Origin: Phyllobates terribilis
Taxonomy: Eukaryota
Length of the DNA: 64,000 nt
Direction of reading: 5' to 3'
Assembly: GCF_046119375.1 (NCBI RefSeq)
Contig: NW_027362763.1
Location: 893,482,001-893,546,000, forward strand
The position numbers and the translations under genes were made by a program. This document shows positions 6,835 through 39,459 of this stretch, piece by piece (position 1 is the stretch's first letter; the number at the start of each line of letters is the position of its first letter). The notes below the pieces were generated by a model. The model did not search any database, was not told where the DNA came from, and saw nothing but the letters and a program-made list of their open reading frames with translations.

Positions 6835-8658
6835 TAGATACTCTCGTTGGATGCTGAGAAAGCATTCCATAGAGTCTCCTGGCACGCCATATATGATTCT
6901 CTTAAAAGCTTGGGGTAGGGGTCTAGGGGACCCTTTTATAGCCAAAATCACGGCCCTGTATCACAATACGTCACCTAGGCTGAAGATAAATGGAACTGTA
7001 GCACCGAGGGCTCGGTTGCTACAGACGTATTGCACCTCACCCAGAGGTGTGATATCTCACTCTCAGATAAGGATGGAGTGTGGATCAGGACCCGACACCT
7101 GCATGCATTACACCACATTGCCGTGGGGCAGGGCGACCAATATGCCCCTGAGATGGGCACGACAGTCCCTGTCCCTGGCTGGAGTGGGGGGAGGGAACAC
7201 TGAGGAAGGGGAACCCTGCAGTGCAGGAGCAGGGAGGAAGCAGTTCCTGGGTGCATTGAGAAGGGTGTATAAAAGGTGGGCACCATCTTAGTTCAGTGCA
7301 GAGAAGTCTGAGCAGAAGTGGCAGGGAGCAGGGGCTCTGCATGAGCTCTGCTCCGGAGGCGGGCCTAGTAACAGAGGCCCAGGCCTGCAAGAGGGAGAAG
7401 GAAGGAAGAGGAGCGGAGAAGGCTCCAGGAACGAGGAATGAAGGGATCCCAGGGGTGCGGACGGGCGAGTCGCCACCGCACGCCCGAATCCACCTGCGTG
7501 GAGGGGTCAGGCCAAAGGGGGAGACCGGTCCCCGAACTAGTGGAGGCAGGAAACGACCCTCAGCTAGAAACCGGAGGCTCTGACATTTTATGTGGCACAG
7601 CCCCTTGCTCCACCCGCTAGGAAGGCACCACATAGGGTCAGGGAAACTGGCGCCAAGTTTACCAAGAGGAGGCCCGAGGCAGCCGGACAGAAGTGTTGGT
7701 AAGAAAGGCCAGACAAAGGACACACAAAGGGGGTCCTGTGAAGCGCTCCAAAGTTATCTGGGAGTTGTCTGAGCCCCTCACCTGGTGAGCACAGTACGAC
7801 GTGGGCAGCCGTTACCTGCAGACGTGGTCTGGATAATAAGAACTGTGAGTAAAGGCCCTGAACTGCATCACTGACTCCGTGTCGTTACTGCTGCTGCCCT
7901 GCACCATCACCCCCATCCTCCGCATACACTGCCCTGAGGCTATACTCCTCCCGTGGGGAGTTATGCTACGCTCTGCTGCACCCACAACACCAGCCTTAGC
8001 GGTCTGCCCTGTAGCGGCGGTTCACTCTGACCGCAATCCACGGGTGGCGTAGTCGGACATTTAAACATCAAAACCACATAAATAGTTCCGCCACTGGTTT
8101 GACCGCCCTGAGCCACGGAACCGGATCGCCGCCACGAAGACTACAACCACCAGCATCCACCAAAAAGGGTCCGGCTCCGGGTGTCCCAAGGCCCAGGGGG
8201 TGAGTCAGAACATTTTCATCACCTTTCACAATCACCAATGGGACAAGGCAGGGATGTCCTCTGTCCCCTCTCTTATACATCCTAGTGACGGAGCACCTGC
8301 TCTCATCAATTCGCCATAACCCCAATATTAGGTGGATTGAGGTGGGAGGCACCGAGTACAAGTGCTCTCTATTTGCTGATGATGTCCTAGTATATATCAC
8401 TCAATCACATATATCCATCCCTGCTGTTATGGCTGAAATAGATCACTTTGTTACATGGTAAAATTTTAAAATCAATGCAGCGAAGTCTGAGGCCCTCGAT
8501 GTCTCCCTCCCTAAATCCATATAGGATTCCATCCAGTCCAACTTTCCCTTTGCCTGGCCCTCACAGGGTATCAAATACTTAGGAATTCCTATTCATAGAG
8601 ACCTCTCCCATCTATGTTATCTTAATTTTGGGCCCTTTATTGAACAATTCCATACAGA
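6835..8658 (+). pseudogene. L1-clade reverse transcriptase fragment split by a solo LTR (hAT cargo, outer copy)
   Basis: Joined frame reads ...LKINGT|FSSPFTITNGTRQGCPLSPLLY...LFADDVLVY...INAAKSE...IKYLGI, i.e. L1 RT domains, with in-frame stops. Confidence 0.85.
6997..8207 (+). mobile_element. Solo LTR (TGTAGCAC...GAGTCA) within the L1 fragment
   Basis: 4-bp TSD GAAC (6993-6996 / 8208-8211). Termini and U5 resemble the other LTRs in the window. Confidence 0.88.
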
Positions 8659-11365
8659 CCACGGTTGGCAAGTTGGAACTGTGAGATTCACTACGTGCAC
8701 CACTGGTATTTTTTGGAAAAGCACATGTAAGATTCTGCAACAGTCTCTGCTGATACTCCTGCATGCGTGCATCCCTTTCTATGGCAGGAATAATTTCTGC
8801 AAATTTACTTTTGTACCGGGGATCTAACAGTGTGGCAACCCAGTAGTCAGGATTATTTCTAATTCTCACAATTTGAGGGTCATGTTGCAGGTAGTGCAGC
8901 AAGAAGGCACTCATGTGTGTTGCGCATCCAGGAGCACCAAGTCCCTGTTGTGTTGGTGGCGAGGTAACAATCATGCTTCCTTCCTCTGTCCTCTCCCCCC
9001 AACCTCGCACAACAGAAATGTGATCAAGGTCTCCCTCATCTGATGAGTCTTCCATCAGTTCGTCCTCCACTTCTTCCTGGGCTCCTGCACCTTCCTCACT
9101 AGTTTGGCTGCTACCATGCGCCCTGGTAAAATCATCTCCCCCACCCTCACATGCCTGCCGCCCTGGTGCTGCCGACCGTCTGGACCTTGCAGATGTTAGC
9201 CCTTCCGCATACAACTCCTCCTCCTCTACTTCCTCCACCTCCTCTTGTGCCACCACCTGACTCCGAATTCTGTTTAACATGTGCTCCAGCATGTAAATCA
9301 CCGGAATAGTCATGCTGATAATGGCATCGTCAGCACTAAACATCTTCGTCGCCATTTCAAAACTGTGCAGAAGGGTGCATAGGTCCCTGATCTGAGACCA
9401 CTCCTCCAGCGTGATTTGCCCCACCTCTGAATCTCGTTGGCCCAGGCTATACGTCAGAACGTATTGCACCAGGGCTTGTCGGTGCTGCCACAGTCGCTGC
9501 AACATGTGCAGAGTTGAATTCCACCGGGTAGGCACATCGCATTTTAGCCGGTGAAGTGGCAGGCCCAACGACTTCTGTAGAGATGTAAGTCGCTGAGCTG
9601 CGGGATGCGAACGGCGGAAGTGAGCACACAGCGACCGTGCCCTCTGCAGAAGGCCATCTAGTCTGGGATAGTGGGCTAAAAATTGCTGGACAACCAGGTT
9701 CAACACGTGAGCCATACAAGGCACATGTGTGACATTGCCCCGGCGAAGGGCCGCACCCAGGTTTGCAGCATTGTCGCACACGGCCTTCCCTGGTTTCAGG
9801 TCCAGTGGAGAAAACCATTCATGAAATTGGTTCTCCAGAGCTGACCACAACTCCTCAGCTGTGTGACTCACATTTCCCAGACATTTCAATGTAAAAACCG
9901 CCTGATGACGTTGAGCCCTACTGCCAGCATAGTAAGGAGGTGTGCAGGATCCCTTCTGCGCAGTTAGAAAGCTTGTGGCATGACCAGACAGGCTTTGGGT
10001 GCAGGTGGAAGACCGAGAGGAGGTTGAGGAGGCAGAAGCAGTGGAGGAAAAATGACATAAAGAGGATTGACGCACAACTCGTGGGGACGGCAAGACTTGG
10101 ACAGCAGCCCCTTGTCCTGCTGTCACCATAGTTACCCAGTGCCCAGTCAGCGACATGTAACGCCCCTGTCCATGCCTACTCGTCCAAGTGTCTGTGGTGA
10201 AATGCACCCTGTCACACACAGAGTTTCTCAAAGAAGCGGTGATGTTGTGTGCGACATGCTGGTGGAGCGCAGGCACACCTTTCTTTGAGAAGTAGTGCCG
10301 ACTGGGCATCTGGTACTGGGGCACTGCGACGGACATAAGGTCTCGAAAATCCTCTGTGTCCACCAGGCGGAAAGGCAGCATTTCTGTAGCCAAGAGCTTG
10401 CAGATGGTGAAATTCAACCTCTTAGCTTTCTCATGGCTAGGAGGAAATGGTCTTTTACTTGTCCACATCTGAGGGACCGAGGGCTGGCTATTGTGCTTAG
10501 ACGGGGTTGATAAGGGTGTCCCCGGCAAACTGCCGGTCTGTGAGGAAGATGCAGGCGGACATGTTAGGTTGCCTTGATCCAAAGGTGGTGCTATCGATGT
10601 CGGACAGCGCTCAAGACCAGCTGGTGTTACCACCTCCAAAGAAAATGATGACCTGCCAATCACGCTGGCTGTTGCGGGTAAAGAGGTGGCAGGTCTGCGC
10701 CCCAAAACAGGTGTGACTGCTGTCCCCCCAGTCACAGAGGATGAAGAGGCCGCGGATGCACAAGATATGGCAGACGGTGGTTGGCCCGGCCGGCTAGACC
10801 GCATTGTAGCACACTGAGCTTCCCACTGCAACTTATGCTTCATGTCCATGTGCCGGTTCATGCATGAAGTACTCAAACTATGTATTTTTTGGCCTCTACT
10901 TAGCTTTTGCTGACAAATGTTACAGATAACACGAGTTGGGTCATCTTTATCGATCTGAAAAAATGCCCAGGCTATGCAAGGCTTAGCACTCATGCGACCT
11001 GAAGAGCCACCACGACTTGTGGTGAGAGGCAGAGTTGTGTTTGAGGATGCAGTTGTTGACGTGCTTCCAGTACTACGTCTCTGTCCAGGAAGGCGCAACC
11101 TGACCTCGTCGTCACTAGCATCTTCCTCCACCTCCTCTGCTGACCTCATCTCTTGGCTGACTGTGGGTTGACAGTAAGTGGGATCTCCGACCTCATCATC
11201 ATCACCCTGTGCGTTATCACACCCGTCGTCCTCAGAGCCAACCTGTTCCTGCCCTGACAAAAAACTAAAGTTGTCGCTCCAATCAGGTATTTGAGTCTTA
11301 TCATCATCTTCCTCATTGTCTCCACCAACAGGAGTTACAGTTTGGGAATGAGGGTCTACATTATG
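8659..11365 (-). pseudogene. hAT transposase of the outer copy, central part (C-terminus deleted)
   Basis: Near-identical to residues ~175-1075 of the 14342-18022 ORF. After NLPTV it runs into the L1 cargo, so the third catalytic E and the dimerisation domain are absent. Confidence 0.92.
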
Positions 11366-12290
11366 GTCAGAACTAGAGATGAGCGTTGTTCTACTCGAAC
11401 TGTTCGCCAATCTCAAATTCGAGCTGTTTTGGGCGGTGTTCGAGCCGGTCGGCGAACACGAACAATTTGAGAAAAATTCGGCTGTTCGAGGTTATGTTCG
11501 ATAACTGTTCGTGCACCAAAATCATAACTGGATTTTTTCTCAGTAATGATGAAAATTAATGTTAATACGCAGTTTGAGTGTACAGCGGGGCGGGGGGAGG
11601 GGCAGGGGATGGATCTCTGCAGGAACAATGAAGATCTCCATTTTTTTTTCTCTTTCCCGCATTTGCAGTGGGGAGGTGCAATCTGTCAGCCTATCAGCAG
11701 CGCACACACGGAGCGAAGTGCTTTTTTTCACACAAGCAAGGGCATGTGTGATTGGCAGTGTATGTCACATGTCCTTGCCCTATAAGACCAAGCCATTTTC
11801 CCCGTCGCCACCATTTTCTCACTGCTGCAGCTGCGTGTTAGACGGCACCGCTGTTGCTGTGTGTGCTATACCTTGTTAATTTCAAGCCAATTTTCGCACA
11901 AATATACAGATAGCTTGGGAGTAGGGAATAGTTGTGATTGCAGTCCTTTTAAGGACTAGGTTACAGCATTTCCTACGACTTTTATCAGGGAGGTCTGTGC
12001 TCTTAAATAGATAGGTTGTGGGAGTAAAGACTAATTGTAATTGGAGTCCTTTTCAGGACTAGGTTACATGAGTTCCTATCAGTTTTTGCCAGGCAGGTCT
12101 GTGCCAGTGCTGTGCAAGTTTTTTTCACAGCATTTGGCTGAATCTAGCAAAGCTAATCCTTTTTGGCCTATTGCAGAGTGTGTTAGTCAGTGGAGTAGCC
12201 TATCTGTGTTGCAAGATATAACACCTGTGTATAGAATACCAATTTTTTTACTGCACCTAGTGAAGTAAAATCTTTTGGGCATAGCATCAT

Positions 12291-14224: not shown

Positions 14225-14341
14225 AACCCAGCCAATAGTTTTGGCCTAATACCACAGTTTGGCCACTCAGCTCTGCTCGGTTACCATCCATTGTTTTTTT
14301 GTGCAAACAACTCCAGAGTTGTGAATTAGTTAACCACCAAA

Positions 14342-17300
14342 ATGAGTGGAAAAAGGCCTGCTGCTGGTGGAAAGGGGAATAGGCATGTTGGGAAGGGGAA
14401 AAAAGGTTGTGTCCGTGGGGTAGGTGCAGAAGAAAGACCATCTTCCAGCCAAACTAAAATGTCTACTTCTTTTATCGGACAATGTGATAAGATCCCTTTC
14501 TTACGGCCACGCCAATCGCTACAAATTCCAGATGAGGCACAAAAACAGCAGGTGCTTCAACGGATATCAAGTGCTCCTTTAAGTGGGCTCTCCTCCACAT
14601 CAACTTCAACATCACAAATACTCCAGTCCTCAAAGGTGTCACCCAAATCGCACTTGCTTCCTCACAGCTCCCAAATCTCCAGCTGCCCGTCTGAGTATGA
14701 GGTAGAACAGATGGTTGAGTCTGCAGAGCTGTTTACTCATACTATAGCCTGGGAATCAGAGGTCGACTCCAGCGCTTCTGTGAATCCAGACGAGGAAATG
14801 ATCTGCACTGATGCCCAGAATCTTTATGAGTCGGATCCAGGACCAGACGCAGAAGGTTCTGACCATAATGTAGACCCTCATTCCCAAACTGTAACTCCTG
14901 TTGGTGGAGACAATGAGGAAGACGATGATAAGACTCAAATACCTGATTGGAGCGACAACTTTAGTTTTTTGTCAGGGCAGGAACAGGTTGGCTCTGAGGA
15001 CGACGGGTGTGATAACGCACAGGGTGATGATGATGAGGTCGGAGATCCCACTTACTGTCAACCCACAGTCAGCCAAGAGATGAGGTCAGCAGAGGAGGTG
15101 GAGGAAAATGCTAGTGACGACGAGGTCAGGTTGCGCCTTCCTGGACAGAGACGTAGTACTGGAAGCACGTCAACAACTGCATCCTCAAACACAACTCTGC
15201 CTCTCACCACAAGTCGTGGTGGCTCTTCAGGTCGCATGGGTGCTAAGCCTTGCATAGCCTGGGCATTTTTTCAGATCGATAAAGATGACCCAACTCGTGT
15301 TATCTGTAACATTTGTCAGCAAAAGCTAAGTAGAGGCCAAAAAATACATAGTTTGAGTACTTCATGCATGAACCGGCACATGGACATGAAGCATAAGTTG
15401 CAGTGGAAAGCTCAGTGTGCTACAATGCGGTCTAGCCGGCCGGGCCAACCACCGTCTGCCATATCTTGTGCATCCGCGGCCTCTTCATCCTCTGTGACTG
15501 GGGGGACAGCAGTCACACCTGTTTTGGGGCGCAGACCTGCCACCTCTTTACCCGCAACAGCCAGCGTGATTGGCAGGTCATCATTTTCTTTGGAGGTGGT
15601 AACACCAGCTGGTGTTGAGCGCTGTCCGACATCGATAGCACCACCTTTGGATCAAGGCAACCTAACATGTCCGCCTGCATCTTCCTCACAGACCGGCAGT
15701 TTGCCGGGGACACCCTTATCAACCCCGTCTAAGCACAATAGCCAGCCCTCGGTCCCTCAGATGTGGACAAGTAAAAGACCATTTCCTCCTAGCCATGAGA
15801 AAGCTAAGAGGTTGAATTTCACCATCTGCAAGCTCTTGGCTACAGAAATGCTGCCTTTCCGCCTGGTGGACACAGAGGATTTTCGAGACCTTATGTCCGT
15901 CGCAGTGCCCCAGTACCAGATGCCCAGTCGGCACTACTTCTCAAAGAAAGGTGTGCCTGCGCTCCACCAGCATGTCGCACACAACATCACCGCTTCTTTG
16001 AGAAACTCTGTGTGTGACAGGGTGCATTTCACCACAGACACTTGGACGAGTAGGCATGGACAGGGGCGTTACATGTCGCTGACTGGGCACTGGGTAACTA
16101 TGGTGACAGCAGGACAAGGGGCTGCTGTCCAAGTCTTGCCGTCCCCACGAGTTGTGCGTCAATCCTCTTTATGTCATTTTTCCACCACTGCTTCTGCCTC
16201 CTCAACCTCCTCTCGGTCTTCCACCTGCACCCAAAGCCTGTCTGGTCATGCCACAAGCTTTCTAACTGCGCAGAAGGGATCCTGCACACCTCCTTACTAT
16301 GCTGGCAGTAGGGCTCAACGTCATCAGGCGGTTTTTACATTGAAATGTCTGGGAAATGTGAGTCACACAGCTGAGGAGTTGTGGTCAGCTCTGGAGAACC
16401 AATTTCATGAATGGTTGTCTCCACTGGACCTGAAACCAGGGAAGGCCGTGTGCGACAATGCTGCAAACCTGGGTGCGGCCCTTCGCCGGGGCAATGTCAC
16501 ACACGTGCCTTGTATGGCTCACGTGTTGAACCTGGTTGTCCAGCAATTTTTAGCCCACTATCCCAGACTAGATGGCCTTCTGCAGAGGGCACGGTCGCTG
16601 TGTGCTCACTTCCGCCGTTCGCATCCCGCAGCTCAGCGACTTACATCTCTACAGAAGTCGTTGGGCCTGCCACTTCACCGGCTAAAATGCGATGTGCCTA
16701 CCCGGTGGAATTCAACTCTGCACATGTTGCAGCGACTGTGGCAGCACCGACAAGCCCTGGTGCAATACGTTCTGACGTATAGCCTGGGCCAACGAGATTC
16801 AGAGGTGGGGCAAATCACGCTGGAGGAGTGGTCTCAGATCAGGGACCTATGCACCCTTCTGCACAGTTTTGAAATGGCGACGAAGATGTTTAGTGCTGAC
16901 GATGCCATTATCAGCATGACTATTCTGGTGATTTACATGCTGGAGCACATGTTAAACAGAATTCGGAGTCAGGTGGTGGCACAAGAGGAGGTGGAGGAAG
17001 TAGAGGAGGAGGAGTTGTATGCGGAAGGGCTAACATCTGCAAGGTCCAGACGGTCGGCAGCACCAAGGCGGCAGGCATGTGAGGGTGGGGGAGATGGTTT
17101 TACCAGGACGCATGGTAGCAGCCAAACTAGTGAGGAAGGTGCAGGAGCCCAGGAAGAAGTGGAGGACGAACTGATGGAAGACTCATCAGATGAGGGAGAC
17201 CTTGATCACATTTCTGTTGTGCGAGGTTGGGGGGAGAGGACAGAGGAAGGAAGCATGATTGTTACCTCGCCACCAACACAACAGGGACTTGGTGCTCCTG

Positions 17301-18022
17301 GATGCGCAACACACATGAGTGCCTTCTTGCTGCACTACCTGCAACATGACCCTCGAATTGTGAGAATTAGAAATAATCCTGACTACTGGGTTGCCACACT
17401 GTTAGATCCCCGGTACAAAAGTAAATTTGCAGAAATTATTCCTGCCATAGAAAGGGATGCACGCATGCAGGAGTATCAGCAGAGACTGTTGCAGAATCTT
17501 ACATGTGCTTTTCCACAAAATACCAGTGGTGCACGTAGTGAATCTCACAGTTCCAACTTGCCAACCGTGGGACCGTCAAGTGTTCAGCACTCAAACCGTG
17601 ACAGAACCACAGTATCTGCTGGTAACATCAATTTTGCGGAATCATTTCACCACTTTTTTAGCCCATCCTTTGCAAGGCCACAGGAGACAAGAAGTCTGAC
17701 ACATAGTCAACGCCTAGAGACGATGGTACAGGAGTATCTCCAAGTAAACATTGAAGCCACGACTGTGTCACTGGACCCTTGCTCTTTTTGGGCTTCCAAT
17801 CTGGATAAATGGCCGGAGCTAGCCACTTACGCCTTGGAGATCTTGTCATGCCCCGCAGCCAGCGTTCTGTCTGAACGTGTGTTCAGCGCTGCTGGTGGTG
17901 TGCTGACAGATAAGCGCACGCGGCTCTCCACTGATAATGTAGACAGACTCACGTTCATAAAGATGAACAAATCATGGATCCGAAACGACTTTTCTACCCC
18001 TGTGTCATCCTGGGGAGAGTAA
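14342..18022 (+). CDS. hAT (Ac/ZBED-like) transposase, 1226 aa, intact
   Basis: BED finger (AWAFF..VICNICQQKL..MNRHMDMKH), catalytic D (HFTTDTWTS), D (VCDNAAN), CxxH (CMAHVLNL), TRWNST, E (SERVFSAAG) and C-terminal dimerisation motif (LTDKRTRL..DNVDRLTFIKMN). No stops. Confidence 0.95.
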   Translation: MSGKRPAAGGKGNRHVGKGKKGCVRGVGAEERPSSSQTKMSTSFIGQCDKIPFLRPRQSLQIPDEAQKQQVLQRISSAPLSGLSSTSTSTSQILQSSKVSPKSHLLPHSSQISSCPSEYEVEQMVESAELFTHTIAWESEVDSSASVNPDEEMICTDAQNLYESDPGPDAEGSDHNVDPHSQTVTPVGGDNEEDDDKTQIPDWSDNFSFLSGQEQVGSEDDGCDNAQGDDDEVGDPTYCQPTVSQEMRSAEEVEENASDDEVRLRLPGQRRSTGSTSTTASSNTTLPLTTSRGGSSGRMGAKPCIAWAFFQIDKDDPTRVICNICQQKLSRGQKIHSLSTSCMNRHMDMKHKLQWKAQCATMRSSRPGQPPSAISCASAASSSSVTGGTAVTPVLGRRPATSLPATASVIGRSSFSLEVVTPAGVERCPTSIAPPLDQGNLTCPPASSSQTGSLPGTPLSTPSKHNSQPSVPQMWTSKRPFPPSHEKAKRLNFTICKLLATEMLPFRLVDTEDFRDLMSVAVPQYQMPSRHYFSKKGVPALHQHVAHNITASLRNSVCDRVHFTTDTWTSRHGQGRYMSLTGHWVTMVTAGQGAAVQVLPSPRVVRQSSLCHFSTTASASSTSSRSSTCTQSLSGHATSFLTAQKGSCTPPYYAGSRAQRHQAVFTLKCLGNVSHTAEELWSALENQFHEWLSPLDLKPGKAVCDNAANLGAALRRGNVTHVPCMAHVLNLVVQQFLAHYPRLDGLLQRARSLCAHFRRSHPAAQRLTSLQKSLGLPLHRLKCDVPTRWNSTLHMLQRLWQHRQALVQYVLTYSLGQRDSEVGQITLEEWSQIRDLCTLLHSFEMATKMFSADDAIISMTILVIYMLEHMLNRIRSQVVAQEEVEEVEEEELYAEGLTSARSRRSAAPRRQACEGGGDGFTRTHGSSQTSEEGAGAQEEVEDELMEDSSDEGDLDHISVVRGWGERTEEGSMIVTSPPTQQGLGAPGCATHMSAFLLHYLQHDPRIVRIRNNPDYWVATLLDPRYKSKFAEIIPAIERDARMQEYQQRLLQNLTCAFPQNTSGARSESHSSNLPTVGPSSVQHSNRDRTTVSAGNINFAESFHHFFSPSFARPQETRSLTHSQRLETMVQEYLQVNIEATTVSLDPCSFWASNLDKWPELATYALEILSCPAASVLSERVFSAAGGVLTDKRTRLSTDNVDRLTFIKMNKSWIRNDFSTPVSSWGE

Positions 18023-19793: not shown

Positions 19794-21620
19794 TCTGTAT
19801 GGAGTTGTTCAATAAAGGGCCCAAAATTAAGATAACATAGATGGGAGAGGTCTCTATGAATAGGAATTCCTAAGTATTTGATACCCTGTGAGGGCCAGGC
19901 AAAGGGAAAGTTGGACTGGATGGAATCCTATATGGATTTGGGGAGGGAGACATCGAGGGCCTCAGACTTCGCTGCATTGATTTTAAAATTTTACCATGTA
20001 ACAAAGTTATCTATTTCAGCCATAACAGCATGGATGGATATATGTGATTGAGTGATATATACTAGGACATCATCAGCAAATAGAGAGCACTTGTACTCGG
20101 TGCCTCCCACCTCAATCCACCTAATATTGGGGTTATGGCGAATTGATGAGAGCAGGTGCTCCGTCACTAGGATGTATAAGAGAGGGGACAGAGGACATCA
20201 CTGCCTTGTCCCATTGGTGATTGTGAAAGGTGATGAAAATGTTCTGACGCACCCCCTGGGCCTTGGGACACCCGGAGCCGGACCCTTTTTGGTGGATGCT
20301 GGTGGTTGTAGTCTTCGTGGCGGCGACCCAGTTCCGTGGCTCAGGGCGGTCAAACCAGTGGCGGAACTATTTATGTGGTTTTCATGTTTAAATGTCCGAC
20401 TACGCCACCCGTGGATTGCGGTCAGAGTGAACCGCCGCTACAGGGCAGACCACTGAGGCTGGTGTTGTGGGTGCAGCAGAGCGTAGCATAACTCCCCACG
20501 GGAGGAGTATAGCCTCAGGGCAGTGTATGCGGAGGATGGGGGTGATGGTGCAGGGCAGCAGCAGTAACGACACGGAGTCAGTGATGCAGTTCAGGGCCTT
20601 TACTCACAGTTCTTATTATCCAGACCACGTCTGCAGGTAACGGCTGCCCACGTCGTACTGTGCTCACCAGGTGAGGGGCTCAGACAACTCCCAGATAACT
20701 TTGGAGCACTTCACAGGAACCCCTTTGTGTGTCCTTTGTCTGGCCTTTCTTACCAACACTTCTGTCCGGCTGCCTCGGGCCTCCTCTTGGTAAACTTGGC
20801 GCCAGTTTCCCTGACCCTATGTGGTGCCTTCCTAGCGGGTGTAGCGAGGGGCTGCGCCACATAAAATGTCAGAGCCTCCGGTTTCTAGCTGAGGGTCGTT
20901 TCCTGCCTCCACTAGTTCGGGGACCGGTCTCCCCCTTTGGCCTGACCCCTCCACGCAGGTGGATTCGGGCGTGCGGTGGCGACTCGCCCATCCGCACCTC
21001 TGGGATCCCTTCATTCCTCGTTCCTGGAGCCTTCTCCGCTCCTCTTCCTTCCTTCTCCCTCTTCCAGGCCTGGGCCTCTGTTACTAGGCCCGCCTCCGGA
21101 GCAGAGCTCATGCAGAGCCCCTGCTCCCTGCCACTTCTGCTCAGACTTCTCTGCACTGAACTAAGATGGTGCCCATCTTTTATACTCCCTTCTCAATGCA
21201 CCCAGGAACTGCTTCCTCCCTGCTCCTGCACTACAGGGTTCCCCTTCCTCAGTGTTCCCTCCCCCCACTCCAGCCAGGGACAGGGACTGTCGTGCCCATC
21301 TCAGGGGCATATTGGTCGCCCTGCCCCACGGCAATGTGGTGTAATGCATGCAGGTGTCGGGTCCTGATCCACACTCCATCCTTACCTGAGAGTGAGATAT
21401 CACACCTCTGGGTGAGGTGCAATACGTCTTTAGCAACCGAGCCCTCAGGGTGCTACAGTTCCATTTATCTTCAGCCTAGTTGACGTTTTGCGATATAGGG
21501 CCGTGATTTTGGCTATAAAAGGGTCCCCTAGACCCCTACCCCAAGCTTTTTAAGAGAATCATATATGGCGTGCCAGGAGACTCTATGGAATGCTTTCTCA
21601 GCATCCAACGAGAGTATCTA
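19794..21620 (-). pseudogene. L1 RT fragment split by a solo LTR (hAT cargo, inner copy)
   Basis: Inverted near-identical counterpart of 6835-8658. Confidence 0.85.
20245..21457 (-). mobile_element. Solo LTR (inner-copy counterpart of 6997-8207)
   Basis: TGACGCAC...GCTACA with TSD GTTC (20241-20244 / 21458-21461). Confidence 0.88.
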
Positions 21621-24085: not shown

Positions 24086-25536
24086 TGATGCTATGCCCAA
24101 AAGATTTTACTTCACTAGGTGCAGTAAAAAAATTGGTATTCTATACACAGGTGGTATATCTTGCAACACAGATAGGCTACTCCACTGACTAACACACTCT
24201 GCAATAGGCCAAAAAGGATTAGCTTTGCTAGATTCAGCCAAATGCTGTGAAAAAAACTTGCACAGCACTGGCACAGACCTGCCTGGCAAAAACTGATAGG
24301 AACTGATGTAACCTAGTCCTGAAAAGGACTCCAATTACAATTAGTCTTTACTCCCACAATCTATCTATTTAAGAGCACAGACCTGCCTGATAAAAGTCGT
24401 AGGAAATGCTGTAACCTAGTCCTTAAAAGTACTGCAATCACAACTATTCCCTACTCCCAAGCTATCTGTATATTTGTGCGAAAATTGGCTTGAAATTAAC
24501 AAGGTATAGAGCATACAGCAACAGCGGTGCCGTCTAACACGCAGCTGCAGCAGTGAGAAAATGGTGGCGACGGGGAAAATGGCTTGGTCTTATAGGGCAA
24601 GGACATGTGACATACACTGCCAATCACACATGCCCTTGCTTGTGTGAAAAAAAGCACTTCGCTCCGTGTGTGCGCTGCTGATAGGCTGACAGATTGCACC
24701 TCCCCACTGCAAATGCGGGAAAGAGAAAAAAAAATGGAGATCTTCATTGTTCCTGCAGAGATCCATCCCCTGCCCCTCCCCCTGCCCCGCTGTACACTCA
24801 AACTGCGTATTAACATTAATTTTCATCATTACTGAGAAAAAATCCAGTTATGATTTTGGTGCACGAACAGTTATCGAACATAACCTCGAACAGCCGAATT
24901 TTTCTCAAATTGTTCGTGTTCGCCGACCGGCTCGAACACCGCCCAAAACAGCTCGAATTTGAGATTGGCGAACAGTTCGAGTAGAACAACGCTCATCTCT
25001 AGTGAGCACCACACGGTACACTCAGGGACGTGGGCTACTTATACTCGCTTCTATCAAGGTAGCCAGAAGAGTATCGTTAGTTTGGGAGGCCTACAACTCC
25101 GCCTGGCCAGGGGAGATCCCATCTGCTCAAGGACTGACCAGGCCCCAACCGCTAGCCAGTACTCCGGGAGGGTCTAGCTTTGTCACCAGTAAAGACCCTG
25201 AACTACACCGCATCGTCTCTGAGTGGTTCCTGCTACCCCCATCATCCACGTCGGCTGCCCTGAGGCCATACCCCTCCCGTTGGGGGTTATACCATCCACG
25301 CTGCACCATCCTTCCACCGGCCTCAGCGGTCTGCCCTGCAGCGGCAGCTCCATAGCTGCATTCAACGGGTGGCGTAGTCGTCCATCATCTACCGCTGATA
25401 CAGCGCCACTTAGTCTGACTCCCTGGGCACGGACCGGATCACCGCCACGAGACTACAACCCTCAAGAGATCCGGCTCCGGGTAAGCTCCCGCGTGCGCAA
25501 CACAGCGCGACACAGGCCCAGGGGCGCGTCAACTTT

Positions 25537-25921: not shown

Positions 25922-26374
25922 ATGGAAGAGGATCATCGCAAGGTAGGCCACGGTCCACTAGGGGGGAGAAGGATGTCGGATACGGAGGAGAGCTTCACCG
26001 CTTCAACCCCCGCCAGCGCCACCGCTGTTGCGGTCATGCCTTTCACCATGCCCTATATCCCGGGGGCAGCCTGGCTACCCCAGTACTCAGGGGAGTCACA
26101 TACCCTGCATGACTTTAGAGAAAAGCTGGATAGCCTCTTCCAGGTGTACCCCCTCACAGAGGAGCAAAAAGTGAGCATCCTGGTGGCCCAATTAACCGGA
26201 GAAGCCCAAAGGGAGGTAAAGTCCTGGCCATCTGGGGGGAGGACTGTCGCAGAGATACTAACCCAGCTAACCGAGGAGGAGCTGCAGTACTACCAATACG
26301 AGGAAAGCCAAGAGGACCCGGACGGGTCTGAGGACTACCCTCAGGAGGGAGCACAAAGAGGACATAGCTACTGA
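25922..26374 (+). CDS. Truncated PNMA-like gag N-terminus fused in frame to an acidic tail
   Basis: LPQYSGESHTLHDFREKL..EQKVSILVAQLTGEAQREV resembles gypsy/PNMA capsid. It ends in LTEEELQ..QEDPDGSED, shared with the end of the 35501-37441 ORF. Confidence 0.65.
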   Translation: MEEDHRKVGHGPLGGRRMSDTEESFTASTPASATAVAVMPFTMPYIPGAAWLPQYSGESHTLHDFREKLDSLFQVYPLTEEQKVSILVAQLTGEAQREVKSWPSGGRTVAEILTQLTEEELQYYQYEESQEDPDGSEDYPQEGAQRGHSY

Positions 26375-28264
26375 AGGGAAGTAGCGTGAATAAAGAGCTG
26401 TAAATAGTTACCCGTAAGGGTACAAGGACTGCTGCTAATTAAAATATGGTCCCCGTGGGGATTAGTGAATTGTTCCCCGTGTGTCCCTATCCCTTACCAG
26501 GCTGAGGACTGTGAGCAGCCATCCCCTATCCCTTACCAGGCTGAGGACTGTGAGCAGCCAATCCTTATCCCCACTGGCCGAGGACTGAGAGCGGCCATAT
26601 CCTGTAAATAATTATGTGTTTCTAGTAATTTATAGAAGTACTTGGTGGATTTACCGGGAATCCTTTGTACAGTTAGTGGAGCGCAACCCAGGATGGACTA
26701 AAAGACTGTTAAGGACTCGGGGAGGACACGACCCCTATCTGGTTACGTCTCCCTGTTTTGGTGAAATGGACACCTTGCTTTTCTTCAAAGACTGCGCCCG
26801 GTTGCGGACACGCCGTAACCATCTTTATGTGTTTTTCTTATTGTATTATTATTGTTTATACCTTGTTATGTTTTTCTAAAAATATGTTTAGTCCCGGAGT
26901 ACTAAATTTCACTAGGGGGGAATGTGGCACCCCAGGGGTCTGGTTTCCACAGTAACAAGCAATGTTATGTCTGAGAGCAGGTGGGAGGTCTCTTTGTCAG
27001 GAATCCTATGCATGCCACACCTCCTGCCCAGTCCTGGGAGGGGAAGAACTTCCCCTGTATAAACCTGGGGCTGAGGCAGGGTTAGAGAGTTGAGAGGGAG
27101 AGTTCAGCCAGGAGGGCTGACAGGGAGCTGTGGCTCCGGCTAGGCCCAGCTCCTGGGCCATGCCAGAAGTAGAGAAGAGAAGCAGCATAGGAAGAAACAA
27201 CAGGAGCTCTGTGGGAGCAGTGTTACAAAGATTCAGGGGCTGGCAGCTGCAGAGCTCGCCCTGACTGAGAAGATTTCTTACCGGACCCGGAGTCCGAGGC
27301 TGTGGGGACTAACTCCTACCCAGCAGCAGAATCCGTCAGGCAGGGGATTTCAGGTCCTCTGGCCAAGAAACCTGAAGGCACGGTCACACGCATGGGACCA
27401 GCACCGCCGTCGTGGAGCGGAAGCTACTAGAAGGCCCCGAGTCACCGGCCATACGGGTGAGCACCACACGGTACACTCAGGGACGTGGGCTACTTATACT
27501 CGCTTCTAGCAAGGTAGCCAGAAGAGTATCGTTAGTTTGGGAGGCCTACAACTCCGCCTGGCCAGGGGAGATCCCATCTGCTCAAGGACTGACCAGGCCC
27601 CAACCGCTAGCCAGTACTCTGGGAGGGTCTATCTTTGTCACCAGTAAAGACCCTGAACTACACCGCATCGTCTCTGAGTGGTTCCTGCTACCCCCATCAT
27701 CCACGTCGGCTGCCCTGAGGCCATACCCCTCCCGTTGGGGGTTATACCATCCACGCTGCACCATCCTTCCACCGGCCTCAGCGGTCTGCCCTGCAGCGGC
27801 AGCTCCATAGCTGCATTCAACGGGTGGCGTAGTCGCCCATCATCTACCGCTGATACAGCGCCACTTAGTCTGACTCCCTGGGCAAGGACCGGATCACCGC
27901 CACGAGACTACAACCCTCAAGAGATCCGGCTCCGGGTAAGCTCCCGCGTGCGCAACGCAGCGCGACACAGGCCCAGGGGCGCGTCATATATATGTATGTT
28001 TTCTGTTTTATAGACCTGATATGGGCTTGATATATATTTTGTTGATTTGCCTAGTGAATAGGATCTCATCTGACCTCTTGCAATATACTGGAAAATACTG
28101 TGAGGATGACTCTAACCAATTGAATCTTTGATATTATGCGTTCTGCATTTCCTGATAACTGTAGAATTTGATGTAGTCAGCCATGTATACCATTTTGTTA
28201 TTGTTTTTGTTTTCTTTTTTTGTTTTATTCTTTACTCTGACCATATGTTTGCATTTATATTCAT

Positions 28265-33235: not shown

Positions 33236-33850
33236 TTAGAATAGAAGATTAGGAATTGCAGAATATTCCATAGACGTTTTAACAAAAGGCAGCATGACCT
33301 GAAGACGCAAGAATTATGTAAAGTAATGCAAGGGAGGCCAGTGCATTGTCATTAACCTGATGACCCTGGGCGCAAACAGATGTTTGAATTGCATGATGAC
33401 ATCAAACAAGCAGAGGAGGCTGGATTTCTGTCATAAACTTAGAAAAAATTAACTGTTTAAATGTTGGTTAAAATATTATTTTTGCTATAAAGTTTAGGAA
33501 AAGCATTATTAAATTTTTATTGATATTGTGATTACCCTAAAAAACATACACACTGCGTACAGAATTATTATTAGGCAAGTGAATATTTTGACCATATCAT
33601 CTGTGGCAATGCTACTCACTTGGGTGCGTGGTGAGATAAGACAGGGACCGTTTCCATTTAAATATCCATGCTGGTTTATTGGTGCTTCATAAACCATGCC
33701 ACAAGCAATGGAAAATAAAAGGCATTTCAGTGCAGGCAAAACAAAGTAAGCAGTTCTTAACAAAGGCTTTAAGCTGGAGTCAGAATAGCGTATGGCATCC
33801 GAAGCCAGATGCGATATGCTAATGACACTAGGCTCCTGCTCTGCTGCTAG

Positions 33851-36800
33851 TGACGCGCCCCCTGGGCCAGTGTTGTTTGGGGGATACCCGGAGCCGGATC
33901 AGATGGGGGTTGTAGTCTCCGAGTGGCGGTGACCCGGTCCGTGCCCAGGGTGTCAAGCTCAGTGTGTGGCAGTCCTACAGATGTTGCTGGATGTTCTTTA
34001 GTGTCGACTACGCCACCCGTTGATTTGCGGTCAATACGGCCGCCGCTGCAGCAGGGTCCGCTGAGGCTGGTGGTGTGTGTGCAGCTTCTGGTAGTATAAC
34101 CCCCAACGGGAGGGGTATAGCCTCAGGGGGTCAGTTGTAGAGGGTGGTGGTTGTGGTGGTGCACTGAGGATGGTATTAAGACTCAGAGTCGGGCTGTGCA
34201 GTTCAGGGTTTTTACTTACTGCTGTTGTTCTGGTCACTCCGGCCTTGAGTGACCGCCCGAGCCGTGCTGCGTCCACCAGGTCCTGGACTCGGCCAACCCC
34301 CAGGTAATTCTGGAGCATGATCCTGAGCTCCCTTTCTGTCGTTCCTTTTCTCTGGCCTTCCCCACCAGGGATCCACCTATGTCCGGCTCCCTCGGGTCTC
34401 TTGGTGGGTACACCTCTTCTGGGTTCCCTGACCCTATACTTGGTCTGCCTTCCTGGTGAATTTAGTGGGGGGTCGTGGCAGATCCTGCCCACAACCTCCG
34501 GTCTCTGGCTGAGGATTAGTGCCCTCCACCAGCTTGGGATCCGGTACCCTTGTGCCAACCCTTCACCCTGTTGCTTGTATTTGGGCTCTTGGGGTTCCCT
34601 CTTCTTCCCCTCTGGGTCCTTCTGACTCCTCTCTCTCTTCTTCCAGGACTGCTTGACCCTCTACAACAGACTGACTAGTAGCTGTCTGCCTGTCTGACTG
34701 TCTGACTGTCTGACCCTGATCTAAGATGGTTCCCACCTTATATACTCCCTCTATGTGTGAGCTCAGGTGACCAGCACCCAATGAGCTCCTAGCATTACCC
34801 AGACTGCTCCCCCTATCTGCCCCTACACTACTGGGATGTTCCAACCCCCTCCCACTCCAGCCAGGGACAGACACTATCGTACCTGCACATATACTGGTGG
34901 GAGTACCGTAGATCTGTCCCCCGGAAATGGGATGTATGTAGTGCATGCAGCCTACTGAGCTCAGTTCCACACTCCATCCTTACCCGGGAGTGGAATATCA
35001 CACCTCTGGCTTGAGGTGCAATACCCCTGTAGCAGCTGAATCCTCAGGGTGCTACATTCCCCCCTGGTAAATCACAGCACGTCCTCGGGCTGTAAGAGAA
35101 TAAAAACATCAAACATACAAATTTTTTTTCATAAAACATAAACATATAAAACATCATATATACTATCAGCATAAAACTTTTTATAAATAACATTCTTGTT
35201 CCTCCGGCCACGGTGCAACTTGTGACCGGGTAAAGTGCGACAGTCTCTTCAAGAAAAACAACAGTTTCCTATAAAACCGGTAGGGGGCGCCTTAGGAAGC
35301 GCAACTATATACAAGGGGATATGGCCGCTCTCAGTCCTCGGCCAGGTATAAGGAAGGAATGACCGCTCTCAGTCCTCGGTCAGTGGGATTAAGGGAAATA
35401 CAGGTTAACAGTTTACGCTTGTCCCAACGGGGACATATTTAAAGCAGCAACAGTTCACTGTACCCCGACAGGTAACTATTTACAGTCTCTTTACCGTACT
35501 TTAACGACAGCGTCCTCCTGCTCCTTCTTTATCTTCAGACCCGTCCGGGTCCTCTTGCTCCTCCTCACACCGCAGCTCCTCCTCCGTCAGGCGATGCACA
35601 TGGAGGGCGTAGGGTCCCTTGGCACACTTGTGCCGGGTGAACGTGACCTCGTCCCCTACGTACAGATCACGACCTCTGTGTCCCTCCGGCAGATGGCTTT
35701 CTACGTCTCTGCGGGTTACAAAGACGTCGCCGGGGGTATGATGGTCTTTTATGAAGCCCCACCCATGCTGCAGGTTGAATTTAATCACAGTCCCGGTGGT
35801 ACGGGGACCATGAGCTGCACGGGGGTTCCTCCTGGTCCGGCTCTTCTGCCCTGCGCTCTGTTCTTGCAGCCGCTGCTCTCGGGCCCGCCTCTCTCTCCGT
35901 TCTCGCTCGAAGTCTGCCAACTGCTGGCGGCAGCACTCCACTCGCTCTGCTGCGGCTGCCCGCGTTTCTTGAGTGAACCCCATGAGATCTCCTCCGGTGG
36001 GGTCCCACTCGAATTGTGCTTCTTCCAGCGGGAGCGGGGTTCTCCTGACGGGCTTCGGAGCCGGAATCAGGGGCTCGCACAGGGGCCTTGCTCTTTGGAG
36101 TTCCAGTTGGTAGTACTCCTGGGGCCATACAAAGGGCTGCCCATCCGGGCACGTGTGCTGGGCAAATAGATCTTCGCCCAGGTGCGGCACTCGAGATGTT
36201 GAGGGCGCGTTGATGGTAGCGGCGCCCGGGTTGACCAGGCCTTGCGACCAGGCTTGGGGCACCCTAAAGGTAAAGGGCACCGTAAGGACGGCGGCGCCCG
36301 GGGGTACTCGGCCCTGCGACCAGGCCGGTGGCTCCGCGGAGGTAGGGGGCGCTGTTGGAATTGCGGCGCCTGGAGGTACTAGACCTTGCGACCAGGCCGA
36401 TGGTATTTCCTGTTTGGTCGCGCTCAGGGTCGAGGCGTGTGACGTCACAGGGGTCGCGGCCGCGGCTTCTACTTGAGGCCTAGTCCGGCACGGTGACGAT
36501 GCAGCGATGGGCACGGCAGGGGGAATTTCGGGCTCTGCGACGGGGAGCTGGGACAGGTACACGGTTTCTCGGCTCGGGGTAGTGACGTCCCCTTTACCTG
36601 CCTCCGTCCGTTCAGCTCCCTCCTCGGCGCCGTCTCCGGCCTTCACTCCTCCTGCACCATCCTCAGAGGCGGTCTGTCTCCTCGTCTCGGGTGGCGTGCT
36701 CCGCTGACGGGTTCCGGTCTGCTGGGCCATCTCACGGCTCCACTCCGTCAGCGTGTCTTGCTGCACCTGGGCCATCCTCCGTGCGAGGCCCTCCAGCGCG

Positions 36801-38672
36801 GTCTGTGCACACTCCCGGTCTCGGGGGAGCTGTGCCAGGATCTCCACTAAGCCTAGTGGGGTTGTTGCTTGCAGCAAGCTCCTGACCACTGGGTCGGTGC
36901 TGCCTGTCTCTCCCTCCATCTCCGGGTACGCTTTCTCTGGACTCCTCTCCAGACTTCTTGTCTCCGGGTGCGCTCTCTTCAGACTCCTCCAGGCTGCACC
37001 CATCTTCGTTCTTCTGTTCAGTCTCCGCCCACATCGAGGGTGGTCCCGGGGCAACTTTGTGATTGTCAGTTCCAGGGGCAGTTCTCTTACGCTGATGGAC
37101 ACTTCCAGCATCACAGTCTCTGTTGGTGGGCGCGGTTTCCGCTTTTGGCGCCATTCTTCGACCTGGCCCACGATGGGAGGTGGCCTCTTGCCACCCTCTG
37201 GCACGCCCATAATGGCGTCCGCTCTTCCAAGGCGGGAAATCTTTGGAAATGGCGAGAATCGCCTCCCAGTGGCGGGAAACTCCATGGATGGCGGGAAAAA
37301 GCTGCAAATGGCGGACAACCGGCGGGAATCGACCTGTGATGGGGTCCGTTGGCGGGGACCCTCCGGAACCGGCGGAAGACTTCTTTTTGAGGTAACGGTG
37401 AACTTTTCTTCAGGCACGCAGTACCCGGTTGTTGCGGGCACGTAATCCTGCCGACTACGCCAAAGTTGACGCGCCCCCTGGTCCAGTGTTGTTTGGGGGA
37501 TACCCGGAGCCGGATCAGATGGGGGTTGTAGTCTCCGAGTGGCGGTGACCCGGTCCGTGCCCAGGGTGTCAAGCTCAGTGTGTGGCAGTCCTACAGATGT
37601 TGCTGGATGTTCTTTAGTGTCGACTACGCCACCCGTTGATTTGCGGTCAATACGGCCGCCGCTGCAGCAGGGTCCGCTGAGGCTGGTGGTGTGTGTGCAG
37701 CTTCTGGTAGTATAACCCCCAACGGGAGGGGTATAGCCTCAGGGGGTCAGTTGTAGAGGGTGGTGGTTGTGGTGGTGCAGTGAGGATGGTATTAAGACTC
37801 AGAGTCGGGCTGTGCAGTTCAGGGTTTTTACTTACTGCTGTTGTTCTGGTCACTCCGGCCTTGAGTGACCGCCCGAGCCGTGCTGCGTCCACCAGGTCCT
37901 GGACTCGGCCAACCCCCAGGTAATTCTGGAGCGTGATCCTGAGCTCCCTTTCTGTTGTTCCTTTTCTCTGGCCTTCCCCACCAGGGATCCACCTATGTCC
38001 GGCTCCCTCGGGTCTCTTGGTGGGTACACCTCTTCTGGGTTCCCTGACCCTATACTTGGTCTGCCTTCCTGGTGGATTTAGTGGGGGGTCGTGGCAGATC
38101 CTGCCCACAACCTCCGGTCTCTGGCTGAGGATTAGTGCCCTCCACCAGCTTGGGATCCGGTACCCTTGTGCCAACCCTTCACCCTGTTGCTTGTATTTGG
38201 GCTCTTGGGGTTCCCTCTTCTTCCCCTCTGGGTCCTTCTGACTCCTCTCTCTCTTCTTCCAGGACTGCTTGACCCTCTACAACAGACTGACTAGTAGCTG
38301 TCTGCCTGTCTGACTGTCTGACTGTCTGACCCTGATCTAAGATGGTTCCCACCTTATATACTCCCTCTATGTGTGAGCTCAGGTGACCAGCACCCAATGA
38401 GCTCCTAGCATTACCCAGACTGCTCCCCCTATCTGCCCCTACACTACTGGGATGTTCCAACCCCCTCCCACTCCAGCCAGGGACAGACACTATCGTACCT
38501 GCACATATACTGGTGGGAGTACCGTAGATCTGTCCCCCGGAAATGGGATGTATGTAGTGCATGCAGCCTACTGAGCTCAGTTCCACACTCCATCCTTACC
38601 CGGGAGTGGAATATCACACCTCTGGCTTGAGGTGCAATACCCCTGTAGCAGCCGAATCCTCAGGGTGCTACA
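33851..38672 (-). mobile_element. Non-autonomous LTR retroelement (1206-bp LTRs) carrying one cold-shock-domain ORF
   Basis: LTRs 33851-35056 and 37467-38672 with about 6 differences by eye. TSD CTAG (33847-33850 / 38673-38676). tRNA-Ser PBS 37445-37462. PPT AGGGGGGAA 35057-35065. No pol. Confidence 0.95.
35501..37441 (-). CDS. Retroelement-encoded protein with 24-aa repeats, coiled-coil/Arg-rich segment, C-terminal cold-shock domain and acidic tail (first ATG 37285, 594 aa)
   Basis: Open 646-codon frame filling the internal region. TGTVIKFNLQHGWGFIKD...DVFVT...LYVGDEVTFT..KGPYALHV contains RNP1- and RNP2-like CSD motifs (35588-35800). Confidence 0.8.
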   Translation of the reverse strand: MPATTGYCVPEEKFTVTSKRSLPPVPEGPRQRTPSQVDSRRLSAICSFFPPSMEFPATGRRFSPFPKISRLGRADAIMGVPEGGKRPPPIVGQVEEWRQKRKPRPPTETVMLEVSISVRELPLELTITKLPRDHPRCGRRLNRRTKMGAAWRSLKRAHPETRSLERSPEKAYPEMEGETGSTDPVVRSLLQATTPLGLVEILAQLPRDRECAQTALEGLARRMAQVQQDTLTEWSREMAQQTGTRQRSTPPETRRQTASEDGAGGVKAGDGAEEGAERTEAGKGDVTTPSRETVYLSQLPVAEPEIPPAVPIAASSPCRTRPQVEAAAATPVTSHASTLSATKQEIPSAWSQGLVPPGAAIPTAPPTSAEPPAWSQGRVPPGAAVLTVPFTFRVPQAWSQGLVNPGAATINAPSTSRVPHLGEDLFAQHTCPDGQPFVWPQEYYQLELQRARPLCEPLIPAPKPVRRTPLPLEEAQFEWDPTGGDLMGFTQETRAAAAERVECCRQQLADFERERRERRAREQRLQEQSAGQKSRTRRNPRAAHGPRTTGTVIKFNLQHGWGFIKDHHTPGDVFVTRRDVESHLPEGHRGRDLYVGDEVTFTRHKCAKGPYALHVHRLTEEELRCEEEQEDPDGSEDKEGAGGRCR

Positions 38673-39459
38673 CTAGCATGAGCCGAGTGTCAGTGCTCCG
38701 ATCCTCTTGTATGAGAGGATCGCAGCACAGCTGCAGAGAAGACGGTGAAATTAATTGCTGCCATCAGTGGGAATTGCACTGCACTCGGTGATATCCGAGT
38801 GTAGTGTGATATTTCACATGCACTCATAGTTTTACATGGGTGCATGTGATCCGAATTCCGCATGCAATCGCAACATGCTGCATTTTTTCCCCGTCCTATA
38901 GTGATCCGATCGGAGCAAAAAAAAACGCCATTGAGAACACAAGCATAGGATAAATTTTTTAATCGGATTGCATTAGTCTGATTTAAATTTAAGTGTGATC
39001 GAGCTCTTAGAGACAGGCCAGGACACACAGGTTGGATAGCATCCAGTATACTGGCTTAGTCTGGAGATAACACACAGGAGGCCTTTTTACCTCCACACAC
39101 ACAGACCATATGTCAAACAGATGCCATTTTACCATGAGAACCACACTCAGGGGTGGTATGTGGGCAGCCAGACCCGCCCATCTCTCAGGCTGCCCATTAA
39201 ACCTGGCCCAGATGCACAAAACAAGCCTCCTAGTACTATGTGCACTAGAGCTTTACCCCAGGTTTACATCACAGATGACAACCACGTTCGTGATACATAC
39301 CTCCCACCAACTATGTGTCTGGCAGCCACCTTGCACATAATTTTTATGCAGATTTTCCAACTCCATACTGTATAAACTTGAATGCTTATTGGCTTGAAGT
39401 AGATTAAGGGATGTGTATTTGTGTATTGAGGGATGGTGTGGCCTAAGGATATCAACACC

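Follow-up and report, generated by a model that had tools for sequence, protein, structure and literature searches.

A cold-shock-domain protein as the sole gene of a very probably helper-dependent LTR retrotransposon in the poison frog Phyllobates terribilis

In a window of 64,000 nucleotides from the genome of the poison frog Phyllobates terribilis (assembly GCF_046119375.1, contig NW_027362763.1, positions 893,482,001 to 893,546,000 of the forward strand; all positions given here without a chromosome are those of this window), the minus strand of positions 33851-38672 is occupied by a 4.8-kb element flanked by long terminal repeats (LTRs), with an interior of 2.4 kb that contains one long frame (Table 1). 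Both LTRs end in TG...CA when read on the minus strand, and they differ by 6 mismatches (0.5%), at 33866, 34164, 34317, 34340, 34459 and 35037. Paired LTRs, a target-site duplication, a tRNA-Ser primer site and a polypurine tract are all present, as an original prediction made from the sequence alone had described, and they identify the locus as an LTR retrotransposon insertion. The primer site begins 4 nt past the 5' LTR and pairs with the 3' end of a tRNA-Ser(TGA) gene of the same genome, an assignment based on the gene called by ARAGORN at one of the four loci that carry the matching end (one locus with the same end was read as tRNA-Ala). U5 contains, some 170 nt before the primer site proper, a short repeat of the beginning of that site (37633-37644, and likewise in the 3' LTR), and the helper family described below has it as well. 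At LTR position ~210-315 a comparable TATA-like box was seen in 14 of 14 copies of the element examined. Assuming a substitution rate of 1-2e-9 per site per year, the 0.5% divergence of the LTRs would place the insertion at about 1-2.5 million years ago. The element had been called young, which suits this copy, but it is one copy of an old and diversified group.

The frame runs uninterrupted on the minus strand from 37441 to 35501, and amino acid (aa) numbers are counted here from its beginning at 37441. A gene had been predicted over this whole interval; the open frame is confirmed but not the extent of the protein, which likely starts at the ATG at 37210, since codons 1-77 show no selection at the protein level and this ATG is invariant. 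An equivalent ATG in good context was present in all 13 frames that reach this point (16 frames were compared). A start at 36919 instead is possible. Over the 1.1 kb that separates the ATG at 37210 from the TATA-like box, ATG triplets are scarce on the sense strand alone: nine copies together contain 34 ATG but 136 CAT (p 1e-15). The leader of the helper is likewise ATG-poor on the sense strand. The leader of the element probably serves as a packaging signal; folding of its RNA and of codons 78-175 revealed no unusual structure (z -0.5 and -0.1).

Concerning the content of the frame, the sole Pfam match is the cold-shock domain (CSD) PF00313, with an E-value of 2e-8 and 34.4 bits against a curated cut-off of 27, and no reverse transcriptase (RT), RNase H, integrase, protease, capsid or zinc knuckle was matched by Pfam in this open reading frame (ORF). 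No further long ORF or env-type Pfam match was found in the element or in the helper. AlphaFold, run with 17 relatives, gave a 45-residue helix followed by a five-strand barrel, with a pLDDT of 80-92 across most of both, and the best matches of the barrel model among PDB structures searched with Foldseek were CspA, CspE, CspB, YBX2, CARHSP1 and YBX1. The reading of the gene as a cold-shock protein without enzymes or CCHC knuckle, with an Arg-rich helix before the domain and an acidic tail after it, is therefore upheld. When more of the protein was modelled, a helical region near the N-terminus and an extended disordered linker appeared in addition (mean pLDDT 54). We considered a Gag origin for the ORF and rejected it: by eye the N-terminal helix resembles a Gag coiled coil and a linker motif resembles the start of Gag, but domain scores were below 0 bits and the hhalign probability was 0.08%. 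Prediction of a complex between aa 45-300 of the helper Gag and the N-terminal helical region returned a score of 0.01, which is evidence neither way.

To characterize the selection acting on the gene, we made pairwise counts on open frames, pooling five pairs in which no copy was reused and giving ranges over three transition weights. The ratio of non-synonymous to synonymous change (dN/dS) was 0.14-0.18 for the CSD (p 1.5e-25 or less), with 35, 29 and 108 differences at the first, second and third codon positions. It was 0.19-0.25 for the helix and 0.24-0.31 for aa 421-480, then 0.52-0.67 for aa 176-420 and 0.59-0.67 for the linker, and reached 0.87-1.01 for aa 1-77, the part of the frame that precedes the ATG. 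Four further sets of pairs, the oldest lineage among them, gave 0.13-0.28 for the CSD, after one frameshifted copy (L069) had been dropped. From this analysis it is evident that the C-terminal 225 codons are under purifying selection between lineages. In codons 78-175 synonymous and non-synonymous change are both low (dN/dS 0.3-1.0 depending on the set), which would fit a loosely constrained N-terminus overlapping an RNA signal. The weak constraint on these codons and on the linker could also suggest that the ORF is neutral, or is open only because translation stabilises the RNA; this explanation is contradicted by the concentration of constraint on the CSD and helix and by the threefold excess of third-position differences, and we find it barely credible. 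Single copies decay by private stops and frameshifts, while selection acts between the lineages that transpose. Among the 10 short-frame copies compared, a shared stop position never marked a pair of closest relatives, one of these positions being a CpG codon, and no amplified dead lineage was seen.

Each search of the genome, which measures 10.6 Gb, scored the best 150 candidates. A search with the last 120 codons yielded 40,540 candidates at first look, a figure that is not a copy number, and the best 150 were all 98-100% identical. Of these best-scoring copies, 123 have 471 open codons or more and no stop within the match, and this, with the purifying selection, speaks against a frame disrupted or neutral in most copies. 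The Pfam model gave 33,380 candidates, again not to be read as copies, and revealed diverged lineages that are 45-87% identical over the helix and CSD. In a systematic sample of 60 stretches of 10 kb one CSD was found, which extrapolates to about 18,000 copies (95% interval 450-98,000). LTRs could be delimited in 12 of the 14 copies tried, with interiors of 2.0-2.6 kb and LTR identities of 88-100%; given this span, the activity of the group extends over a long period. Since the best copies are nearly identical and LTR pairs reach 100% identity, the elements have also multiplied recently, without enzymes of their own. Tandem copies about 3.6 kb apart were noted at three places (C5:295389454/295393060, C12:56840100/56843690 and C2:505528782/505532417), and this spacing equals one LTR plus an interior, the arrangement predicted for two interiors that share one LTR.

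Outside this genome, a profile search of 1.84 billion representatives gave, among the best 150 matches listed, five single-domain relatives above the background of multi-CSD proteins: one each from P. terribilis, Ranitomeya variabilis and R. imitator and two from Anomaloglossus baeobatrachus. The P. terribilis protein was discarded as independent evidence from a second species, being 97% identical to a copy in the genome of the window. The Ranitomeya and Anomaloglossus proteins, known from protein sequence alone, are 44-61% identical to the best locus compared in that genome and keep the order of helix and CSD and the same CSD signature. If they come from the same elements, the capture of the domain, presumably from a host Y-box mRNA, would date back beyond the point at which dendrobatids and aromobatids diverged, about 40 million years ago. 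Word-based protein search is insensitive here, as a near search with the same alignment gave two proteins. A RefSeq model named "R3H and coiled-coil domain-containing protein 1" has first ~140 residues that belong to the oldest CSD lineage (78% to locus L159), which is either an exonisation of the element or an artefact of the gene model.

As for the origin of the domain, the family profile scored YBX1/YBX2 best among solved structures (38.6 bits, with CspA at 32.8, CARHSP1 at 19.4 and LIN28 at 12-15), and one Anomaloglossus protein reached 33 bits against YBX and at most 19 against every other. The sequence of the window's element, taken alone, scored a little better with a bacterial Csp (26.2 bits) than with YBX (24.1 bits). 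In a tree of CSDs, which included a single decayed YBX-like row, the element rows fall together on one side (support 71/86). Y-box proteins have an N-terminal CSD that is near-identical across vertebrates, followed by a tail of alternating basic and acidic stretches. The domain of the element resembles YBX1 and YBX2 (FRGY2) in the long loop behind RNP2 and in both RNP phenylalanines, but it is only ~32% identical to them, the tyrosine of RNP1 is a tryptophan, and it lies at the C-terminus between unrelated flanks, which is not the canonical Y-box layout. On these comparisons a host Y-box gene is the probable source. Concerning viruses, BFVD contained phage and giant-virus CSDs at 21-26% identity and no close relative; the best score in the ESM Atlas, 0.77, is a lead only. 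The genome search for host YBX genes returned one match, the query itself. At about 734.44 Mb of C1 (L031-L036) we noted tandem intronless CSDE1-like copies with long open frames, which are retrocopies, the intron-bearing gene being found at L037/L038.

A second element of the window led to an autonomous family, here family 1, with a PNMA-like Gag carrying a CCHC knuckle followed by protease, RT, RNase H and integrase. The primer site of the CSD element recurs in each of the 12 copies fetched, which are 73-76% identical to that element in U5 and the leader start. Between the two, there is almost no difference from the LTR end through the spacer and primer site and for 40 nt beyond, and the polypurine tract has the same pattern. 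Family 1 is abundant, with five RT matches of at least 94% in a 600-kb systematic sample. Autonomous family 2 has a different primer site, for tRNA-Ser(CGA), which is also the one carried by the oldest CSD lineage; similarity in U5 and leader followed the primer type in all 15 CSD copies in which the site was found (12 of family 1 type and 3 of family 2 type), the pattern having missed 13 older copies. Both families are Ty3/Gypsy and lack the CSD, yet they share cis signals with CSD lineages of the same genome. We conclude that the window element is very likely a helper-dependent, non-autonomous Ty3/Gypsy-type retrotransposon. The original prediction of a helper-dependent element that has kept a CSD gene is thus sustained by the shared cis signals, by the selection on the CSD and by Y-box proteins being the best-scoring relatives.

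It might be argued that these elements are deletion derivatives of an unsampled autonomous gag-pol family carrying a CSD, considering that birds have endogenous retroviruses (ERVs) with CSDs beside gag and pol (PMC12287698) and that our genome searches scored only the best candidates. We regard this as very unlikely: the domain was found in none of the 12 autonomous copies fetched, and gag-pol was present at 4 of 29 ten-kb CSD loci, each time outside the LTRs of the element, as sequence into which it had inserted. No longer CSD fusion protein was found among 7981 scored, although this test is weak. At L068, L072, L073 and L158 the CSD element lies in the pol region of an autonomous Gypsy element, which may only reflect how much of the genome Gypsy elements cover.

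The second element is itself a chimera of helper and passenger. It consists of the LTR, primer site and start of Gag of family 1 (94%), a piece of a CSD element joined in frame that comprises its tail and part of its 3' untranslated region, and the 3' end of family 1, and it codes for a 133-aa fusion of Gag start and acidic tail. The inserted piece is 72-75% identical to the CSD lineages sampled, and its exact donor is not among them. The chimera forms an amplified family of its own (40 of 40 scored matches near-identical, from 1137 candidates). Such a structure would be expected from template switching between RNAs packaged together.

A 19-kb composite made up of hAT transposons and a 110-bp satellite interrupts the 5' LTR of the chimera, whose two parts lie at 5418-5960 and 25002-25531. 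Within this composite we noted an open hAT transposase frame of 1230 codons (14330-18019, plus strand), with zf-BED and dimerisation domains, and a truncated, inverted transposase copy (8615-11491, minus strand), both within a large nested inverted structure. The composite also carries a solo LTR of an older CSD lineage, at ~6997-8210 (plus) and 20245-21462 (minus), at one fixed site in the repeat with identical flanks. The same arrangement was present in 9 of the 60 systematic 10-kb samples (L234, L243, L253, L260, L281, L287, L290, L292 and L240), so that a DNA transposon appears to have spread the older-lineage LTR as cargo.

Table 1. Features of the CSD element and of the chimeric element in the window.
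Feature	Position	Strand	Remarks
5' LTR	37467..38672	-	1206 bp, TG...CA
3' LTR	33851..35056	-	1206 bp, pairs with 5' LTR
Target-site duplication	left 33847-33850, right 38673-38676	.	CTAG
TATA-like box in U3	38354..38360	-	putative promoter
Primer-binding site	37445..37462	-	18 nt; complementary to tRNA-Ser(TGA) 3' end; same in autonomous family 1
Leader	37211..37444	-	open frame, dN/dS ~0.9-1.0; first 50 nt nearly identical to autonomous family 1
Single ORF	35501..37210	-	569 aa from likely start ATG 37210; alternative start 36919, 472 aa
N-terminal helical region	36707..36892	-	aa 184-245; dN/dS 0.5-0.6; without detectable Gag homology
Pro/Ala-rich linker	36182..36706	-	aa 246-420; predicted disordered; three internal repeats
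Long Arg/Glu-rich helix	35828..35968	-	aa 492-538; dN/dS ~0.2
Cold-shock domain PF00313	35594..35797	-	aa 549-616; dN/dS 0.14-0.18; YBX-like loop; W65 and H87 equivalents replaced
Acidic tail	35504..35584	-	differs between lineages
Polypurine tract	35057..35065	-	adjoins 3' LTR; pattern as in autonomous family
Chimeric helper/passenger element	5418-27986	+	otherwise autonomous family 1 sequence
CSD-element tail and 3' untranslated piece in chimera	26269..26602	+	334 bp

From the signals described, the following cycle can be proposed. The element would be transcribed from its LTR and its protein translated from the ATG at 37210. Because the RNA carries signals for priming, transfer and integration but encodes no enzymes, Gag-Pol of the helper would have to package it, prime it with tRNA-Ser, reverse transcribe it and integrate the copy. 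The newly made protein would act in cis, binding the RNA that encodes it through the CSD and basic helix, and so raise both the survival of this RNA in the germ line and its entry into helper particles. The benefit could lie in RNA stability, in a shield from small-RNA silencing or in outcompeting the helper RNA for packaging. Cis action is suggested because a product freely shared by thousands of copies should decay, and yet the gene is conserved; moreover a shared product would let broken lineages spread, and the copies with a stop at the same codon, in a small sample, are not closest relatives. Host YB-1 is reported to support HIV RNA metabolism and virion production (PMC6040738). We lean, with modest confidence, towards this complete mechanism, in which the passenger is copied in trans by a gag-pol helper and its protein binds its own RNA, protects it and favours its loading into particles.

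It should be noted, however, that several observations weigh against it. The dN/dS values are counting estimates on elements that recombine. Private and shared variants, compared within lineage in 30 copies, did not differ significantly (p 0.34-1.0, biased by the choice of copies), and therefore cis action is argued more than tested. The partners expected to share the LTRs have in common with the CSD element U5, the primer site, the leader start and the polypurine tract, but their U3 is unrelated, so the exact helper is not proven. The CSD tree does not resolve the donor. The aromatic RNP surface (W, F/Y, F, F, H) lacks its first Trp and its His: in the 15 proteins aligned, no aromatic residue stands at the position of YBX1 W65, on which m5C stacks in YBX1 (PMC13465095), and no His at the RNP2 (H87) position. 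As both are replaced, RNA binding by the domain may be changed or weak. Finally, the amplified chimera has no CSD, which implies that the protein is not required for mobilisation.

Instead of acting in cis, the protein could work in trans in oocytes, shielding retroelement RNAs in general, the helper included, as a masking or counter-silencing factor resembling Y-box proteins of the FRGY2 type. YBX being the best-scoring relative and the helper being very abundant in this genome would agree with such a role. The alternating basic and acidic tail of Y-box proteins is absent, however, the CSD is C-terminal, and a shared product is unlikely to show a dN/dS of ~0.15 in every lineage unless its benefit is local; hence, even though Gypsy RNA is abundant in poison-frog ova (in passages of PMC6278860), we judge this role unlikely. 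A role on DNA, whether in the particle, chaperoning single strands during priming or strand transfer, or in the nucleus on the LTR of the element itself, seems to us more doubtful still, as the helper Gag already has a CCHC knuckle, a chimera without the CSD replicates and entry of the protein into particle or nucleus is purely hypothetical. That the helper Gag comes with a knuckle and the element has no capsid also tells against the proposal that the CSD substitutes for the nucleocapsid. The passenger might also be a brake on the helper or useful to the host, a defective-interfering or half-domesticated element selected through host fitness, for it draws on the helper enzymes and its protein could sequester helper RNA or Gag; nevertheless selection acts between transposing lineages, individual copies accumulate stops and frameshifts of their own and no one locus stood out as conserved, which makes this highly improbable.

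We compared the element, for which we favour the helper-dependent reading with cis action of its protein, with known systems. In the partner pairs SARE/SNRE of soybean, RIRE2/Dasheng of rice and MusD/ETn of mouse, helper and passenger have their primer site, polypurine tract and LTR ends in common and recombine with each other. The frog element is similar, having cis signals in common with the helper and recombining with it, but we know of no selected host-derived protein gene in those passengers. LINE-1 ORF1p combines a helical region with a small RNA-binding domain and prefers its own RNA in cis; here the likeness is a functional analogy only, without homology and in a different class of element, and the cis preference of the frog protein is hypothetical. 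TR-GAG elements of plants are also non-autonomous and still active, with one ORF and no enzymes, but that ORF is Gag (PMC4350172), whereas the frog ORF has no homology with the helper Gag. The closest precedent is given by 46 bird ERVs with a host PF00313 domain captured repeatedly (PMC12287698); these are retroviruses with RT, while the frog Ty3/Gypsy-type passenger has the CSD protein as its sole gene in many lineages. In the main text of the same paper the word "selection" occurs once, in the references. The original prediction had known of no CSD in LTR elements, which the bird ERVs qualify, but we found no report of CSD capture in Ty3/Gypsy elements or as the only gene of a passenger in the full-text literature (Repbase, Dfam and most subscription journals lie outside its coverage). 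The passages of poison-frog and anuran genome papers contain no mention of a CSD (PMC6278860, bioRxiv 10.1101/2023.11.06.565769, PMC12822217, PMC12208295). In summary, the frog element is not an autonomous Ty3/Gypsy element, having the CSD as sole Pfam match and no Gag homology, nor is it a TR-GAG element or, judging by the ORFs and Pfam matches of element and helper, an endogenous retrovirus.

Non-autonomous LTR elements are usually non-coding or retain only gag. That selection maintains a single host-derived gene in several lineages implies that its protein favours the passenger in competition with the helper or against host silencing, and this makes it testable how parasites of retrotransposons out-compete helper RNA. 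The element is an independent case, beside the bird ERVs, for repeated capture of CSDs by retroelements, and it names a family that annotation based on RT would overlook in the genomes of poison frogs, in which a large part of the repeat DNA has no classification (PMC12208295) and recent Ty3 activity tracks genome size (PMC12822217). More tentatively, and with less confidence than in the mechanism itself, these elements might represent a "satellite" class of LTR elements: a lineage as old as the poison-frog radiation in which gag-pol was replaced by a remodelled Y-box domain, which would compete in cis for the particles of helpers with unrelated U3, switch helpers by exchange of primer site and U5, and contribute to the giant genomes of these frogs.

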